This document shows positions 1,809 through 8,881 of a stretch of 8,881 bases of DNA, one piece after another. The DNA lies in IMG/VR virus record IMGVR_UViG_2700989170_000005; one strand, written 5' to 3'. The stretch's first letter is position 1. Each line of letters starts with the position of its first letter. The DNA is from a virus (lineage: Duplodnaviria > Heunggongvirae > Uroviricota > Caudoviricetes). Position numbers and translations under genes: made by a program. The notes beneath the pieces are model-generated. The model had not been told where the DNA came from, ran no database searches, and saw nothing but the letters and a program-made list of their open reading frames with translations.

Positions 1809-2837
1809 TTATTTCACCTGCACCACCACAAACTCATCCGGATCCGGCAGCACCATCAGCGGCGCGGACTGCGTCATGGTGAATTCACGCGCCGGATCAC
1901 CCACGGTCAGCCAGTGTTTCGGATAACGGGAAGACGCCACCACGCCTTCAGACAATGCCTGCGCATCCTGAATGGAACCGTAGCAACGAATACCCTCTGC
2001 GGCCGTATTTCCCAGTACCAGTGTGCCGTCCGGCAGATAACGTTTTTCGGTACCGTCCTCTGCCACATAGGACGTTTTTGCCACCACGATTGCCAGATCA
2101 CCATAATACCCTTTGAAGGACACCACCGCCCCCAGGTCTTTCACTGCCGTTTCCAGCTGTGAATTTGAGCCACGACGGGTATCCAGTTTTTCGCGGAACA
2201 GCTTAAAGCCATTCAGCAGACGCCAGACCTTACCATCCATAATGGCAATATTGATGGTGCCGGAAGCAAAATCACAGTACGCATCCAGATCATGCGTCGG
2301 ATCAAAGGTATCGCGGTCCTGAGCGCTCCACTCCGTCCCTCCTGCCTGCGTAATGTTATTTCCCACCGACCGGCCAAAATCGACCTCAACAGTTTCAAAC
2401 TGCTCTCCTTCCATGGTGTATTTGCCATACAGCACGGCATTCACCGCCTGCATCTCTTCCACCTGGACAATGGCGTGCTCTTCCTGTTTGAGGTTATCGG
2501 TGATGATACGCAGGCGACGGTAAGCCGGGCCGTTCAGCTGGGCCGGATCTTCACCGGGAAGACGCTCCACCGCCTGCTGGTAATTAAATTCGTGTTTCGG
2601 CTTAACGTAGCCCGGGCGCAGTACACGAGTTTCACCGCCACGGTGACGCAACACCTTTCCTTCAACAACCGGGGAGACATAGGCCGCCACCGGCGTTTTT
2701 CCGGTAATTTTGTCCAGCATTACCTCTTCGGTATGGAAATTCACCGTACGGCGGAAAAACAGCTCCAGAAACAGCGCACGAAATTTAACTTTTTGTTCGG
2801 TATAACCGAGTAACTGGCGGGTCGTAAACAATCCCAT
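1809..2837 (-). CDS. E: Major capsid protein (lambda gpE-like), 342 aa
   Basis: ORF 1809..2837 on minus strand. Long colinear match to lambda gpE (341 aa), e.g. PGYVKPKHE, AIVQVEEMQAV.AVL.GKYTM.GE.F..VEVD.GRS..NNITQ.GGTEWS, KLDTRRGSNS.LETAVKDLG, REFTM.QSAPLM.L.DPDEF. ATG at 2835-2837 with AAGGAA 8 nt upstream. Confidence 0.95.
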   Translation of the reverse strand: MGLFTTRQLLGYTEQKVKFRALFLELFFRRTVNFHTEEVMLDKITGKTPVAAYVSPVVEGKVLRHRGGETRVLRPGYVKPKHEFNYQQAVERLPGEDPAQLNGPAYRRLRIITDNLKQEEHAIVQVEEMQAVNAVLYGKYTMEGEQFETVEVDFGRSVGNNITQAGGTEWSAQDRDTFDPTHDLDAYCDFASGTINIAIMDGKVWRLLNGFKLFREKLDTRRGSNSQLETAVKDLGAVVSFKGYYGDLAIVVAKTSYVAEDGTEKRYLPDGTLVLGNTAAEGIRCYGSIQDAQALSEGVVASSRYPKHWLTVGDPAREFTMTQSAPLMVLPDPDEFVVVQVK

Positions 2838-2894: not shown

Positions 2895-3242
2895 TTACGG
2901 CAGCGCTGCGTGACTCAGGGCACTGCCGGCAAAGGCATTCGCCTTTTTGTGTGTATCCACTCTCTCAGGCCAGTGGATGGCCTCCGTCGCAAAGGTCCCC
3001 GACTTGTAATACGTCAGCACCGTCTCTGTACCTTCAAGCGGCAGTACCAGTATGCCAACCACATGGCCTGCCTTCTGTCCGTCCCAGACCACCAGTTTCC
3101 CGGTATCCTCATCCAGCATCAGGGGCGTCAGAGCCGGTGTTGCCGAGGAAATCCCGCTGCAGCCTGTGGCGGTATGGGCCGGATCATTACCGGCAAAAAT
3201 ACGTACTTCCGCACGCTGTTCAGTGATGGTTTTCGTTACCAT
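2895..3242 (-). CDS. D: Head decoration protein (lambda gpD-like), 115 aa
   Basis: ORF 2895..3242 on minus strand. DPAHTAT, TPLMLD...KLV.WDG, VGIL, YYKSGTF, FAG.A match lambda gpD (110 aa). ATG at 3240-3242 with GAGG about 11 nt upstream. Confidence 0.9.
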   Translation of the reverse strand: MVTKTITEQRAEVRIFAGNDPAHTATGCSGISSATPALTPLMLDEDTGKLVVWDGQKAGHVVGILVLPLEGTETVLTYYKSGTFATEAIHWPERVDTHKKANAFAGSALSHAALP

Positions 3243-3278
3243 ATTGTAAAAACCTCATATTGATGGTCAGCACTGACT

Positions 3279-3947
3279 TCATGGCATGGCCATGAGCATT
3301 TTCACGTCCGCATCACCGTCTGCTGACGTCTGTGGCACGCCACCCTGTACCGCTGCCGGTGAATGGTTCGCCATGNNNNNNNNNNNNNNNNNNNNNNNNN
3401 NNNNNNNNNNNNNNNNNNNNNNNNNNNNNNNNNNNNNNNNNNNNNNNNNNNNNNNNNNNNNNNNNNNNNNNNNNNNNNNNNNNNNNNNNNNNNNNNNNNN
3501 NNNNNNNNNNNNNNNNNNNNNNNNNNNNNNNNNNNNNNNNNNNNNNNNNNNNTTTTCAGCCTGCGCCTCTGCCCCTTTTGCCTCATCCAGGGCCATAATC
3601 TGATCACGAAGTGAGGGTCCGGCATTCGCCTGCGGTGAAGCAGCCAGAATCGGACGGGCTTTTTCCACCGTCATCTCCGGCATCGCCGCCAGCGTTGCCG
3701 CCAGTTGTTCACGTCCTTTCGCCTCTTCACATGCCATAATGCGATCGGCTTCACTCTGCGCAGATACACCAGATTGTTGCGGTGCCGCCACGGCCAGAAT
3801 CGCCCGGGCCTGCTCAACGCTCATACCCTGTTGCCCTGCCAGCATCGTGGCCAGTTGTTCACGTCCTTTCGCTTCCTGACACGTCAGGATCCCCATCACT
3901 CGCTGGTTCTCCTGCGCGGCAGCCTCCGTTGCAGTTAATTGCGGCAT
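3279..3947 (-). CDS. nu3: Nested in-frame scaffolding protein (lambda Nu3-like), initiating internally in C at ATG 3945-3947; spans the assembly gap
   Basis: In-frame ATG at 3945-3947 (C residue 302, ..GGTMPQLTATE..) is preceded by a strong AGGAGG Shine-Dalgarno with a 4-nt spacer (minus strand ACAGGAGGCACTATG). This matches the lambda arrangement, where Nu3 is translated from an internal start in the C frame (..GGRMTKETQ..). Downstream sequence is the repeated helical scaffold-like motif. Confidence 0.5.
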   Translation of the reverse strand: MPQLTATEAAAQENQRVMGILTCQEAKGREQLATMLAGQQGMSVEQARAILAVAAPQQSGVSAQSEADRIMACEEAKGREQLAATLAAMPEMTVEKARPILAASPQANAGPSLRDQIMALDEAKGAEAQAEXXXXXXXXXXXXXXXXXXXXXXXXXXXXXXXXXXXXXXXXXXXXXXXXXXXXXXXXXXXXMANHSPAAVQGGVPQTSADGDADVKMLMAMP

Positions 3948-4850
3948 AGTGCCTCCTGTATCGTGTGTGTTCAGCGTCGCAGCCATCACGCTGATGGCGT
4001 CCGACGCATTGATTAATTCATCCGCCAGTTCGGCCTCAATACCGGACTGACCTTCAAAAACGGCGGCCTCTGTTCCCATAACCGCATCCACAGATAAACC
4101 GGTATACATCGCCACTTTTTCAGCAAACATCCGGCGCGCCGCATCAATGCGCTGCTGCATGTCCTGGCGAACCTTTGCTGGCAGGGATTCAAACTGATTG
4201 CCATCCACCTTGTGCGATCCGGCGTAAATCAGCGTGATATCCACACCGGCCTGTGCCAGATGACCGGCATAGCTGACATGGCCCATCATCACCCCAATGG
4301 AGCCGATACGGGATGTCTGGGTAACCAGCCGTCGGGAGCAGGCCGATGCCAGTAACATGGCGGCTGAACAGGCCGTGTCATTGCACAGTGCCCAGACAGG
4401 CTTCAGCTGCCGGAGACGGTAAATCATGTCAGCGCAGTCAAACGCGCCGGTGGCCTGCCCGCCAGAACTGTCAATGTCCAGCAGTACGCCCCGTACCTGA
4501 GTGTCCGCCATTGCCTGCTGAAGACAGGCGACAATGCCGTCATAGCCAGTCATTCCGGAAAATGGCCGCATGCCACCCAGCCGGTGTACCAGCGTGCCGG
4601 TCACCGGCAGTACAGCAATACCGTTCACCACCCGGTAAACACGGGCAGGTCGTTTGCCTCCGGCCATGTACTCGTCCGTTTCAGCCAGCATCCCGGGAGC
4701 GTCAAGCTGTACCTGCTGTTGCGGTACCGAAAGGCTTGCTGCGCCCATCTCACGCCCGAGCGCGCAAAAGAAAACCCGCGCATAGGCGGGCTCCAGAAGC
4801 AGCGGCTCATTGAATGCCGCAGCGATAATATGTGAAAGATTACGTCTCAC
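3279..4850 (-). CDS. C: Prohead protease / scaffold fusion (lambda gpC-like, S49/ClpP-type protease N-terminal domain), interrupted by an assembly gap; GTG start; true length unknown
   Basis: Minus-strand frame open from GTG 4848-4850 (GGAGA/GAGGAG Shine-Dalgarno upstream) to TGA 3279-3281, reading through the N run. N-terminal 300 aa are colinear with lambda gpC: AFNEPL.LEPAYARVFFCAL, NGIAVLPV.GTLV, SGMTGY.GI...QQA, GAFDCAD.I.R.R..KPVWAL.ND..CSA..LLASA.SRRLVTQT.R.GSIGVMM.H, ITLIY.GSHKVDGN, MFA.KV..YTGLSV, EAAV..GQ..I.A.LADEL.N..DAI.VM. The 5' end overlaps the portal 3' end as in lambda. Confidence 0.85.
   Translation of the reverse strand: MRRNLSHIIAAAFNEPLLLEPAYARVFFCALGREMGAASLSVPQQQVQLDAPGMLAETDEYMAGGKRPARVYRVVNGIAVLPVTGTLVHRLGGMRPFSGMTGYDGIVACLQQAMADTQVRGVLLDIDSSGGQATGAFDCADMIYRLRQLKPVWALCNDTACSAAMLLASACSRRLVTQTSRIGSIGVMMGHVSYAGHLAQAGVDITLIYAGSHKVDGNQFESLPAKVRQDMQQRIDAARRMFAEKVAMYTGLSVDAVMGTEAAVFEGQSGIEAELADELINASDAISVMAATLNTHDTGGTMPQLTATEAAAQENQRVMGILTCQEAKGREQLATMLAGQQGMSVEQARAILAVAAPQQSGVSAQSEADRIMACEEAKGREQLAATLAAMPEMTVEKARPILAASPQANAGPSLRDQIMALDEAKGAEAQAEXXXXXXXXXXXXXXXXXXXXXXXXXXXXXXXXXXXXXXXXXXXXXXXXXXXXXXXXXXXXMANHSPAAVQGGVPQTSADGDADVKMLMAMP
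3376..3552. other. Assembly gap: run of 177 N
   Basis: Directly visible as 177 consecutive n characters, located inside the C/nu3 coding region immediately 3' (in gene orientation) of the tandem repeat array. Confidence 0.99.
3555..3917 (-). repeat. Imperfect tandem repeats, period about 141-150 bp, at least 3 copies, inside C/nu3; each encodes a ..R.MG/A....EAKGREQLA..LA...M.VE.AR.ILA..PQ.. unit
   Basis: A perfect 23-nt direct repeat gccagttgttcacgtcctttcgc occurs at 3700-3722 and 3850-3872 (period 150). A third, diverged copy at about 3560-3600 (gccccttttgcctcatccagggccataatc) abuts the N run. Protein-level copies: ENQRVMGILTCQEAKGREQLATMLAGQQGMSVEQARAILAVAAPQQ / SEADRIMACEEAKGREQLAATLAAMPEMTVEKARPILAASPQ / SLRDQIMALDEAKGAEAQAE-[gap]. 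Confidence 0.8.
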
Positions 4851-6433
4851 GTGATGTTGTCTCCTCTTCCGGCCTGCGACTCTCCGCTATCTGCTGCTGA
4901 TACGCCTGGGCTATCCACACCGGACGTGAGAGTCCGGCTTTTTCGCGCTCTGCGGATTCCCTGACCTGCTGGCGGAAAATGTCCTGATAATCTTCGCCCA
5001 TCAGTGCCAGTTCTTTCTCATACGTGCTCAGTCCGGCCTCAATGCGCATCACCGATTCCTGGACCTCCTTGAGCCCGTCAATGGCCATTCTTCCGGAGCT
5101 AATCCACTCTGCCCGTGACCAGGCTGAACGCGCCTGGTAAAAATCAAAACGCGCCCGTGGCGGACGAATAATCCCCCGAAGAAGCGCCTCTTCCAGCCAG
5201 CAGGAAAACATCTGCGTGGCCAGCCGGGCCGCAATAAATTTTCGCCGCCCCATAAAATAGCGCCACGACTCATTGGCGGAGGCGCGGGCACTTGAGTAAC
5301 TGACCTTCGAGTAATCACGGGACAACTGTTCGTAGGAAACGCCAAGACCGGCTGCAATATACCGCAGCAGCGCCTGTTCAAGCGCCGAAAATCCATTGTC
5401 TGAATCCTGCGCTGTCTGCAGGTTCAGCGCATCGCCAGGAAAAAAGGTGCGGAATTTTAACACCGCCCAGCGTCACGTTATTCGTGTCATACCAGCGGGT
5501 GAACTTCTCCAGAATATTAATAAGCGGATTATCCTGCTGACCTTGCGGTGCCCCCGCGATATATTCAAATGCCTTTTCGGTATCAAGTTCACTTTCGATT
5601 GTGGCTGCATACATCGCCTTCACAATGGCCGACTGAAGCTGCGTGGCCTGCAGGGAGTCCAGCATCTTCATCCGCTCCATTACGCTGTAAAACTGATTAG
5701 CCCCACGGGTCTGCCCGTCCTCCACCGGCTCAAAAATATGCAGCATGGCCGGACGCCCGGTGGGAAGCTCACGCGGGATCCGCTCCCAGCGTCCGGCACC
5801 AGAGAACGGAAAATCATCCTCACAGATATGGTACGCAATCGCCCGCCCATACCGATCGACCTCAACCCCGGCCCGCAGAAAGTGGTTCCCCATACCGTGT
5901 CCTGGCGTGTCCACCCGTTTCGGACTCACGGCTTTAAAACGCGTACGGAATAACTGCGTGGTTTCCGTATCCCAGACCGGCTGCACAAAGATTTCGCCGT
6001 TAAAGGCATGCACGCCCACCCCTTCACGGATAAATTCCGTAAACGTGCGTTTCCCTTCCACGTCGATCTCGCCAAACATTCCTTCTGCGTATTCCGACCA
6101 GGCTGCTTCCACCTCCCCGACAAAACTTTTTGCCGTGGTCTCCCGCATCCCCAGCCAACGCCAGTTCAGACGGTAGCTGATAAGAAACATGTGCCCGACG
6201 ATATGATCCTTATGCAGGGCCACCGCATTAGCCGCGATACCGTTATTGCGCACCAGATCATCTGCCCGGGCATTCCCCAGACGCAATGCAGGCAACAGGG
6301 CCGCATCGGCACTCTGCGCCGGTGGTAACCACTCTGCCATTTGCCCGCCAAATCCTGCGCCGCCTCCGTTGTAGCTGAGACTCTCACGAAGCGGAACGCC
6401 GTTCACATCAATCAGGACAGGCGTTCGTTTCAT
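4840..6433 (-). CDS. B: Portal protein (lambda gpB-like), about 530 aa if one base is removed from the A6/T6 run at 5440-5445; as given, split by a +1 frameshift into ORFs 5378..6433 and 4840..5463
   Basis: N-terminal ORF (351 aa) and C-terminal ORF (207 aa) are both colinear with lambda gpB (533 aa): GGG.GFGGQ, DAALLP....GNARADDLVRNNG.AANA..LH.DHIVG, PRELP.GR....H.FEPVEDGQTRGAN.FYSVME.MKMLD.LQ.TQLQSAIVKAMYAATIESELDT, then PGD.LNLQTAQD.DNG.S..EQ.LLRYIAAGLGVSYEQLSR.Y...SYS.ARASANESW.YFMGRRKF, SGRMAIDGLKEVQE.VM.IEAGLSTYEKE. The frames switch at ..GGVKIPHLF | (F)PGDALNLQ.. (lambda: GGAKVPHLMPGDSLNLQ). ATG at 6431-6433 overlaps the W stop (ATGA). Confidence 0.9.
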
Positions 6434-6633
6434 AACCTCACTCCCAGCGGTCGGCGGCGTCGGGTCGTACCCAGAACCGACTCCGCATCGTTGATCGCAC
6501 GGTTAAGCTCATTCAGGGACGCTGCCGTATATTCGATCCTGCGACCGTCTTTCTGTACCGACACAACCCGTTTACCGGTTAATAAATCAAGGCGCGCCTG
6601 ACGCAGCGCCTGCAGTTCAGCGACTGTAACCAT
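6430..6633 (-). CDS. W: Head-tail joining / head completion protein (lambda gpW-like), 67 aa
   Basis: ORF 6430..6633 on minus strand. L.LLTGKRV..VQKDGRR.E.TA.S...L...I is colinear with lambda gpW (68 aa, ..[26 protein letters not shown]..). ATG at 6631-6633 directly follows the A stop TGA (6634-6636); the GGAGGAG in the last A codons serves as Shine-Dalgarno. Confidence 0.9.
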   Translation of the reverse strand: MVTVAELQALRQARLDLLTGKRVVSVQKDGRRIEYTAASLNELNRAINDAESVLGTTRRRRPLGVRL

Positions 6634-8544
6634 TCACTCCTCCGGACAGCTTCGCTGCCAGTTCTTCAAGGGTCGGTTGTGCAGTTGCATCCTTGCGGGA
6701 TGCAACTGCACAGCCAGATCAAGTTGCCAGCGTTGCACGGACACACGTAATGCCGCATAGGCATACACCAGGCAGTCCAGCGCTTCGTTACGCCGCTTTT
6801 TGTTATCCCACAACAGACGCATCTTTCCTTTTTCCCACTTTTCCACCAGTTCCTCCGCCACCAGTTGTTGTGCCTCTGTCTGCGAAAAAATCTCCGGATT
6901 ATCAGGAAAGCGGATGGCATACGATGTGGCCTCATTCACAGGGGTGGGATCGGCCTTCATTCGGGCATAGAGAATTTCTTTTGCGGTATCCGTCCCCACC
7001 TCACACAGATACACACCCCGCTGATTGCGGGTTTTCGGCATGGTGATCACCGGCTTGCCATAGACAGAGGCACCTTTTACCGGCAGTACCCGGAAAATAC
7101 CGTGTTTTTTTGACCTCTGATACACGATTTCGCCATCGATCCCCCCGATATCCCAGCAGACACGGGAAATGGTCATTTCGGTACCGTCTGCATGGCGGTA
7201 TTTTTTATTGATCGCCGCATCCACACGTAACAGCGTCTCTTCCTCATCAGGACGTCCCATGATGATGATTTTATCCACCAGAAAGGCTTCCTCTCCCGGA
7301 GCCCACCCCCAGACATACATCTCAAAACGGTTTCGCTGCGAGTCAATGCCCGCCGTCAGATAAACCACCCGGACAGGCACCGTTGCCGTGTAAGGCACAA
7401 CCTTATCCATCAGTACCTGGTGATCGAGTTTTTCGCCCACGGCCTCTTCCCAGGTCTCGCCCAGCGTGGTGTTCACAAAAGTTTTCACGCCGTTGGGATC
7501 TTTCAGTGCATCCAGCCAGTCACAGACTATCTGTACCCTGGTGGTGAACGGACTGTACGCCGTCCATATATGGAAAGTGATGGAGCGCGGCGGCGGAATT
7601 TCATTACCCGAAGCACTGAAAAACGTCAGACCGTCACACGTCCACATCCCGGTATTGTCACAAATCCAGCGCCCCCCGGTCTGATCAAGTTCAGACTGAC
7701 GGATCACGCAGCCATTATGTTCACACAGGTAATACACCGTTTCCGGTTTACCCTTCTCCCATTTCAGGCCAAACGACGTCGCATCATCGCCAAACTTCAG
7801 ATACTGCTCCTCCCCGCAATGAGGGCAAGGGACATAAAACCGCATGAAATGCGCAGATTCATTCGCAGCTTTTTCAATCTGACAGGAGCCTTTAATTTTT
7901 GGCGTTGAACCGCGTATGGATTTTGGCCATACCGAACCTTCAATACGTTTATCGCCAAGCAGTGTTGGCGAACCTTCTTTTTCCACATCCGGTTCAAACG
8001 AGGAGAGTTCGTCATAGCAGACCACATCGACAGATTTTTCACGGTAGTTTTTGGCAGCAGCACCACCCAAACACCAGAACCCCACACCAGAGGAAAAACG
8101 CTTCAGTGTGAGCGTATTATCCCGGTGTTTCCGGCCCAGCCAGGGAGAAAGTTTTTTCAGGCAAGGAACATCACGAATTGTTGCTTCCACGTGAGACTTC
8201 ATAAAATCTTCAGCAGCTGAGTCCGTCGGCTGAAAAAGAAGAGTGTTGCGGGATTTGTGCTCAATAAAATACCCGATCACACCAAGCACCATTTTTGTAT
8301 AACCAACACGGGCAGATTTAATCAGGTTAACTGTACGAATCTCGTCATTGCCCATGCAGTTCATGATGGCGACCTGAAACTGCAGCGTTTTCCATTCCCC
8401 CTCACCGTATGACGATTCTTTAGGCAGGTAATAATTTTGATCGGCCCATTCTACAGCCGTCACCGGCAATACCCTGACCAGTGGCTGCAGTGCGATAGTG
8501 ACTGCCACCATCATATTACTCAGTTGTTGTTCTGATATATTCAT
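6634..8544 (-). CDS. A: Terminase large subunit (lambda gpA-like), 636 aa from ATG at 8542-8544
   Basis: Minus-strand ORF. The track starts it at TTG 8601, but ATG 8542-8544 yields MNISEQQ.., matching the lambda gpA N-terminus MNISNSQ... Extensive colinear identity follows: TAVEWAD.NYYLPKES.Y.EG.W.TL.FQ.AIMN.MG.D.IR.VN..KSARVGY.KM.LGV..YFIEHK.RNTL, HRDNTLT.KRF..G.GFWCLGG.AAKNYREKSVDV..YDEL, SPT.LGDKRIEGSVWPKSIRGSTPK, HFMRF.V.CPHCGEEQYLKFGD, FYLCEHN.CVIRQ.ELD, TFHIWTAYSPFT, KTFVNTTLGETWE, YLTAGIDSQ, RSKKHG.FRV.P.KGASVYGKPV, TDTAKE, EAQQL.AEE.VEKW, DSKKRRNEALDC.VYA.AALR.S..RWQLDL. Confidence 0.95.
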   Translation of the reverse strand: MNISEQQLSNMMVAVTIALQPLVRVLPVTAVEWADQNYYLPKESSYGEGEWKTLQFQVAIMNCMGNDEIRTVNLIKSARVGYTKMVLGVIGYFIEHKSRNTLLFQPTDSAAEDFMKSHVEATIRDVPCLKKLSPWLGRKHRDNTLTLKRFSSGVGFWCLGGAAAKNYREKSVDVVCYDELSSFEPDVEKEGSPTLLGDKRIEGSVWPKSIRGSTPKIKGSCQIEKAANESAHFMRFYVPCPHCGEEQYLKFGDDATSFGLKWEKGKPETVYYLCEHNGCVIRQSELDQTGGRWICDNTGMWTCDGLTFFSASGNEIPPPRSITFHIWTAYSPFTTRVQIVCDWLDALKDPNGVKTFVNTTLGETWEEAVGEKLDHQVLMDKVVPYTATVPVRVVYLTAGIDSQRNRFEMYVWGWAPGEEAFLVDKIIIMGRPDEEETLLRVDAAINKKYRHADGTEMTISRVCWDIGGIDGEIVYQRSKKHGIFRVLPVKGASVYGKPVITMPKTRNQRGVYLCEVGTDTAKEILYARMKADPTPVNEATSYAIRFPDNPEIFSQTEAQQLVAEELVEKWEKGKMRLLWDNKKRRNEALDCLVYAYAALRVSVQRWQLDLAVQLHPARMQLHNRPLKNWQRSCPEE

Positions 8545-8839
8545 CGAGTAAATCCGGTAATTTATCCCCCGCACGCGCGCACTGATTCGCTCCCTTAGCA
8601 ATAAGGATTTTCAGATGATCAATATGACGCGGCGTTAAATCCGGGAACTGTCGTTGCATGGACAAAGGAATGGAGTCAAGCGTACTGGATAAAGCCATCG
8701 CCAGCTTACTAAGGGCAAAAATACAAAATCCGGTATCGATAAGATTTCCTTTTGACACCTGATTTTTTAACTGCTGTGCGACAGCCTGTTCTGCGGTCAG
8801 TTCCCATCTGGCAATGAGTAGTTTGAGGTGTACTGGCAA
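8516..8839 (-). CDS. nu1: Terminase small subunit (lambda Nu1-like), C-terminal terminase-interaction portion only (about 98 conserved aa); no credible start codon in the window; 5' part apparently out of frame or missing
   Basis: Minus-strand frame 8516..8839 translates to ..RWELTAEQAVAQQLKNQ.......TGFCIFALSKLA..L.S.LD.IPLS.QR.FP.L..RH.D.LK..I.K......A..D.L..LL.EYI, colinear with the C-terminal half of lambda Nu1 (..RHRLTRAQADAQELKNAR...ETAFCTFVLSRIAGEIASILDGLPLSVQRRFPELENRHVDFLKRDIIKAMNKAAALDELIPGLLSEYIEQSG). The stop TGA at 8516-8518 overlaps the 5' end of A by 29 nt, as Nu1/A overlap in lambda. The track's start is a TTG without Shine-Dalgarno; in-frame stops at 8849-8851 and 8867-8869 close the frame upstream. 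Confidence 0.7.
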   Translation of the reverse strand: MPVHLKLLIARWELTAEQAVAQQLKNQVSKGNLIDTGFCIFALSKLAMALSSTLDSIPLSMQRQFPDLTPRHIDHLKILIAKGANQCARAGDKLPDLLDEYIRTTTE

Positions 8840-8881
8840 TAGCGGACACTACCATTTGTTCTTTTTTTAAGCAGCCATCTG

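Follow-up and report, generated by a model that had tools for sequence, protein, structure and literature searches.

The 177 ambiguous bases that interrupt the prohead protease-scaffold gene analyzed here are almost certainly an ordinary scaffolding gap of a public draft genome record, with an over-estimated length. The window, as we call the whole stretch of DNA that was analyzed, has 8881 bases and contains a single run of exactly 177 N (3376-3552), being free of Ns in the rest of its length. It is the exact reverse complement of the NCBI WGS record AZQA01000199.1 (L048; assembly GCA_000566425.1; 8881 nt), in which the 177 N are already present at positions 5330-5506 of the deposit; therefore, they go back to the original assembler or scaffolder and were not introduced by the analysis pipeline. 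The number of Ns would correspond to a distance estimated from paired reads. A mask applied by the data provider was also considered as the source of the Ns and was rejected, since the deposit itself carries them and a mask that preserves length would give 111 and not 177. In the deposited record the gene call ends at the gap, giving a protein of 432 aa.

The estimated-length scaffold gaps of draft WGS genomes share these features, namely Ns in the deposit, flanks that are colinear in finished genomes and a count of Ns that differs from the true distance, and compared with them the gap of the window shows nothing unusual. The original prediction had recognized the 177 N as an assembly gap, and this reading was upheld both by the presence of the run in the deposit and by the colinearity of its flanks in gap-free records. 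The coordinates of the features mentioned below are collected in Table 1.

Table 1. Features of the window, with the basis on which each of them was assigned.
Feature	Position	Strand	Basis
N run, read as a scaffolding gap of estimated length	3376..3552	.	N run counted; 111-nt fill read in relatives
Prohead protease-scaffold gene (lambda gpC / phage 21 gene 5 type, Peptidase S49), GTG start	3279..4850	-	ORF, Pfam, homologues
Peptidase S49 catalytic domain (residues 147-292)	3975..4412	-	Pfam
Nested in-frame scaffold gene (Nu3 / phage 21 gene 6 type), predicted	3279..3947	-	Homologous start
C-terminal tail of C/Nu3 beyond the gap (MANHSPAAVQGGVPQTSADGDADVKMLMAMP, then stop)	3279..3375	-	Translation, match to L002
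Repeat unit 1 (53 aa, ENQRVMGILTCQEAKGREQLATMLAGQQGMSVEQARAILAVAAPQQSGVSAQS)	3753..3911	-	Alignment with lambda gpC, which has one such unit
Repeat unit 2 (47 aa, EADRIMACEEAKGREQLAATLAAMPEMTVEKARPILAASPQANAGPS)	3612..3752	-	Unit comparison
Repeat unit 3, visible first part (LRDQIMALDEAKGAEAQAE + 2 nt)	3553..3611	-	Translation
Terminase large subunit	6634-~8560	-	ORF/Pfam
gpW	6430-6633	-	ORF/Pfam
Portal gene, split in two	5378-6433 and 4840-5463	-	ORF/Pfam
Head decoration protein D	2895-3242	-	ORF/Pfam
Major capsid protein E	1809-2837	-	ORF/Pfam
FI, FII, Z, U	also in the window	-	ORF/Pfam

The protease-scaffold gene and the content of the gap

The gene in which the gap lies has a length of 1572 nt if the Ns are counted, which closure of the gap reduces to 1506 nt (501 aa). 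The gap-closed protein reached 115.3 bits against the Pfam family Peptidase_S49 (gathering cut-off 24.9) over residues 147-292, and shares 52% identity with lambda gpC (E = 1e-138). According to Pfam, the order of the C/Nu3 region on the minus strand is Phage_portal_2, Peptidase_S49, HDPD and Phage_cap_E. Within the gene, the start of a nested scaffold gene is predicted at the ATG 3945-3947, with the motif AGGAGG just 5' of it, and the product would have 200 aa once the gap is closed. This nested start and its ribosome-binding site are homologous to those of the annotated 'scaffolding protein' CDS of phage 21, and the start also to lambda nu3, which is nested in C. The window contains an in-frame internal start with its ribosome-binding site, from which a separate scaffold protein is predicted to be made. 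As a separate observation on the protease part, codon 129 of the S49 gene (4464-4466) gives DSSGG in the window, while all five aligned relatives present DSPGG and lambda DTPGG. This Pro-to-Ser change in a conserved S49 motif possibly means that, in a prophage already without a portal, the protease has decayed as well.

The content of the gap could be read in records that cross the site. The fill is 111 nt long and identical in L012, L033, L036 and L002, with the plus-strand sequence AAATGTTCAAACATGGCGGTTGTGGATGCAGAAACCGGTTCTGCCCTGCCTGAGGCTGCCGCCAGTACAGCCCGGGCATTCTCCACGGTCATCCCCGGACAGGCCGCCAGT. Together with 2+1 flanking bases it encodes, on the minus strand, KLAACPGMTVENARAVLAAASGRAEPVSASTTAMFEHF, which is the remainder of repeat unit 3 (30 residues) followed by the eight residues TTAMFEHF. 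It should be noted that the fill proposed for the window is taken from near-identical relatives, and not from the reads of the AZQA01 strain itself. These relatives are indeed close: the IMG/VR contigs L012 and L033 are one base off the window (position 1976) over ~8.2-8.65 kb, carry the window's private variants and present the same 111-nt fill. Both are draft contigs (8.3 kb and 19 kb, respectively) and both cross the gap site unbroken. The same fill was found in L036, the complete chromosome of Shigella flexneri SFBU1023. Ten more NCBI records (L038-L047), retrieved by means of the window's truncated portal fragment, span the gap without Ns, and in 10/10 of them the gene is called at 501 aa.

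Altogether, the prophage was found without the gap in 13 records at 99.8-100% identity, complete chromosomes included, and in all of them the two flanks are adjacent, colinear and in one orientation. The match is exact over 200+111+200 nt in nine of the 13, with L038, L040-L043 and L045 among these nine. Beyond the near-identical records, the E. coli O121 prophage L002 matches the window at 100% identity over the 214 nt left of the gap and the 424 nt right of it. In L001-L003 the 60-nt flanks lie exactly 111 nt apart. An exact-flank pattern search of IMG/VR gave a spacing of 111 nt in 29/29 contigs. The same flanks at a distance of 165-190 nt were found neither in the pattern search of IMG/VR nor in 185,579 species-representative genomes. 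The annotated homologues in complete E. coli genomes and in phage 21 are all 1506 nt long (501 aa), compared with the 1572 nt of the window ORF with its Ns, and of 60 E. coli records taken by even sampling, 58 have the same length. One of these 60 records, NZ_CP146687.1 of E. coli MS 198-1 (H139), is about 57 nt shorter across the counterpart of window ~3162-3976, where it aligns in two pieces; this rare length variant concerns the scaffold/D-junction region.

The comparison with these relatives makes it very probable that the run of Ns over-estimates the true distance by 66 nt (177 vs 111). Since 177 (3x59) and 111 (3x37) are both multiples of 3, the continuity of the frame across the Ns is a 1-in-3 coincidence. 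The original prediction had warned that this continuity would carry no information if the length of the gap were an estimate, and with a real distance of 111 nt the warning was justified. It had also suggested that the gene continues beyond the gap with a C/Nu3-like C-terminus, which agrees with our results, as the 501-aa S49 peptidase of L002 ends in exactly MANHSPAAVQGGVPQTSADGDADVKMLMAMP. On the other hand, the number of repeat units and the length of the protein, which it had regarded as unknown, could be obtained from the near-identical records: three units and 501 aa. We consider that the gap can be closed in silico with high confidence, by 111 nt that would restore the 501-aa protease-scaffold protein and the 200-aa nested scaffold protein, as they occur in all relatives.

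Repeat units of the scaffold part and possible causes of the break

In the coding direction, the Ns begin after LRDQIMALDEAKGAEAQAE, which corresponds to the first 19 residues of the third of three units of ~50 aa. In the gap-closed protein the three tandem units have 53, 47 and 49 aa. As DNA, they are 52-59% identical to each other; the longest words that unit 3 has in common with units 1 and 2 are of 9-10 nt, while units 1 and 2 share one exact word of 23 nt, located away from the gap. The longest word in common between the fill (with 30 nt on each side) and the rest of the window has 12 nt. Tandem Repeats Finder did not report the array when it was run on the window. The placement of the Ns at the edge of a repeat array, in a partial third copy, as originally described, is correct, with the qualification that the array is evident in the protein, where the gap opens 19 residues into unit 3, and weak at the DNA level, at which Tandem Repeats Finder was silent. 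The presence of three units of ~50 aa is a feature of gpC/Nu3 of the phage 21 type, compared with the single unit of lambda (window 3553-3911 vs L049 119-1438). Judging from the 52-59% DNA identity between units, this triplication is old, and its copy number is stable across ~1900 E. coli records.

Regarding the origin of the gap, the explanation that best fits these data, and in our opinion a nearly certain one, is a scaffold gap of estimated length whose true content is 111 nt, comprising the rest of unit 3 and TTAMFEHF. The assembler would have linked two contigs of one defective prophage of the phage 21/lambda type and put in place of the interval as many Ns as it estimated to be missing. 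The break would be specific to assembly GCA_000566425.1 (for example, by local coverage or a discarded short node) and would not have been forced by the locus. The fill is unremarkable in its secondary structure (z = -1.74) and has a moderately raised GC content (0.61-0.67), values that do not back secondary structure or extreme composition as a cause of the break.

According to the original prediction, the gap was an artefact of repeat collapse, or of an unresolved tandem repeat, in which units of ~150 nt would confuse the assembler and the gap would conceal further units. Such a process could be suspected from the location of the gap within the third unit of a three-unit array, and from the exact 23-nt word common to units 1 and 2. 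However, the units are too diverged as DNA for a collapse by the assembler to be supported: their identity is 52-59%, the longest words that unit 3 shares with the others have 9-10 nt, and Tandem Repeats Finder reported no array. In addition, the number of copies is constant (29/29 IMG/VR contigs, 13/13 near-identical records and 58/60 E. coli records), and other short-read drafts, L012 and L033, cross the site. The sequence that closes the gap holds the rest of unit 3 and eight more residues, without further repeat units, and by this outcome, which the original prediction itself had named as its refutation, the repeat-collapse reading is refuted. We also rejected the possibility that the excess of 66 nt represents one repeat unit, as the units measure 141-159 nt; an extra unit would need this length, and the excess is only 177-111 = 66 nt. 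Hence, repeat collapse is very improbable, and the claim was not sustained. The same low probability applies to a true distance of 177 nt in the source strain, which would imply a private in-frame insertion of 66 nt (22 codons) in the third unit of the scaffold domain. With a length divisible by 3 the run preserves the frame, and rare length variants such as H139, 57 nt shorter, do occur; nevertheless, records that are 1 base off in 8.6 kb have 111 nt, spacings of 165-190 nt are absent from IMG/VR and from the species-representative genomes, and the preservation of the frame is a 1-in-3 chance event. If it were true, such a private 22-codon expansion would mean that a Nu3-type scaffold is length-polymorphic within an otherwise clonal defective prophage.

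A more plausible rival, to which we assign a minor but appreciable probability, is a putative second related lambdoid prophage in the same genome, or strain heterogeneity, which would have created a bubble in the assembly graph from the shared flanks and the divergent 111-nt segment, with the divergent short node dropped and the interval bridged by Ns. This proposal concerns only the cause of the break, and leaves the fill and its length of 111 nt unchanged. Among 25 haplotypes, the per-site frequency of differences from the window type is ~3 times higher in the fill (0.173) than in the 50 nt next to it (~0.055), although the invariance of the flanks is partly an artefact, as the search pattern itself fixed 15-17 nt of each flank. 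The variable sites run from the second base of the fill to the last one. Moreover, the module is present in E. coli genomes in a median of 1-2 copies, with a maximum of 5-6, and the window is recombinant at this point (3162-3976 is 100% L002-like in an L004-like background). Against a bubble, collapsed-repeat flanks would not normally yield contigs of 3.3 kb and 5.3 kb, and the break is absent from L012 and L033, two drafts of this prophage. The same mosaic structure relative to the closest complete E. coli relative could raise the suspicion of a mis-scaffold, with flanks derived from different loci or prophages. This is the least probable of the explanations considered, as the same mosaic, with the flanks adjacent in the same order and orientation, is found in 13 independent gap-free records that include complete chromosomes; flanks at different loci, which the original prediction had named as evidence against a repeat artefact, were not found, and both belong to one locus. 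Consequently, an over-estimated scaffold gap remains the reading that we adopt for the 177 N.

The surrounding prophage module

All genes of the window are located on the minus strand and form, according to ORFs and Pfam assignments, a head and proximal-tail module of the lambda/phage 21 type. On the evidence of its split portal gene, altered terminase 3' end and IS-cut Nu1, the element is a decayed prophage. The portal is divided into an N-terminal ORF of 351 aa and a C-terminal ORF of 207 aa by an A6 run at 5435-5440, where intact E. coli relatives present A5. In the public collection, 2587 indexed blocks, complete chromosomes included, contain the 351-aa fragment; therefore, the portal pseudogene is genuine and fixed in a widespread defective prophage, and is not the result of a read error.

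The 3' end of the gene for the terminase large subunit (6634-6720, around 6703-6707) presents a 1-nt deletion and substitutions with respect to E. coli relatives. The ORF thus stops right before gpW (636-aa calls) rather than overlapping it (642 aa); the 642-aa form is found in the related records L039, L041, L044, L046 and L047. The C-terminus of lambda gpA binds the prohead, and by analogy the altered C-terminus may inactivate the protein. In the same gene, two complete genomes, L036 and L037/L043 (E. coli ECMA0423), show indels with respect to the window at 7818 and 7947, of -1 and +1 and 129 nt apart, and the terminase of L043 is called as two pieces of 201 + 397 aa. At 7818/7947 the window, L012, L033, L038 and L040 mutually agree, so that in the L036 and L037/L043 genomes either errors or genuine changes may be involved.

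At the other end of the module, the last ~57 nt of the window (8825-8881) lose the match to intact E. coli relatives and are the terminal part of an IS3-family element, with an HTH_Tnp_1/rve transposase ORF that reaches ~15 nt into the window. The element cuts Nu1, of which a fragment of 107 aa is left (8516-8839). The record stops there because its end falls in the IS3-family repeat, a typical break of short-read contigs.

Another aspect to mention is the mosaic patch 3162-3976, which comprises the D/C junction and the whole scaffold domain. It is 100% identical to the E. coli O121 prophage L002 and ~91% identical to L004, which elsewhere is ~99.7% identical to the window. The patch has the appearance of a segment exchanged by recombination among lambdoid prophages, and its extent is exactly that of the scaffold part. 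Finally, position 1976, the sole difference from L012/L033 (A vs C), is a private, non-synonymous change (Ala288Ser, A288S) in the major capsid protein; the exact Ala288Ser protein was present in a single contig of the public collection, AZQA01000199.1, whereas the sequence word with this private base was absent from IMG/VR and from the metagenomes. A literature search for the accession brought up nothing but unrelated six-letter prefixes.

Comparison with known systems and meaning of the gap

The closest of the systems with which the gene was compared is that of phage 21, genes 5 and 6 (UMO75420 and the nested UMO75421; record OL657228). Both present terminase, W, portal, C/Nu3, D and E in the same order, a protease-scaffold gene of 1506 nt (in the window, once the gap is closed), a nested internal start and three units of ~50 aa. 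The capsid protease/scaffolding protein of phage 21 and that of the window have ~87% identity as protein and ~90% as DNA. In contrast to phage 21, the copy in the window is part of a prophage in decay, in which the portal is split, the 3' end of the terminase altered and Nu1 cut by an IS element, and in this record it is also interrupted by the 177 Ns. With lambda gpC (NP_040584) and its nested Nu3 (NP_040585) the window shares the S49 domain, the location between B and D and the in-frame nested scaffold gene. However, lambda gpC contains one unit of ~50 aa (ENSRIMGILNCEEAHGREEQARVLAETPGMTVKTARRILAAAP...) after an unrelated linker, whereas the protein of the window has three in tandem, and their lengths are 439 aa and 501 aa (gap-closed), respectively.

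No new biology rests on the gap, which is an ordinary artefact of a draft record, and the main value of the result is one of curation: in AZQA01000199.1 the protease-scaffold gene is cut short by the gap (the 432-aa call). Neither the length of the N run nor the continuity of the frame across the Ns should be taken for biology. More generally, a repeat that is evident at the protein level need not be an assembly hazard if its DNA copies are only 52-59% identical.
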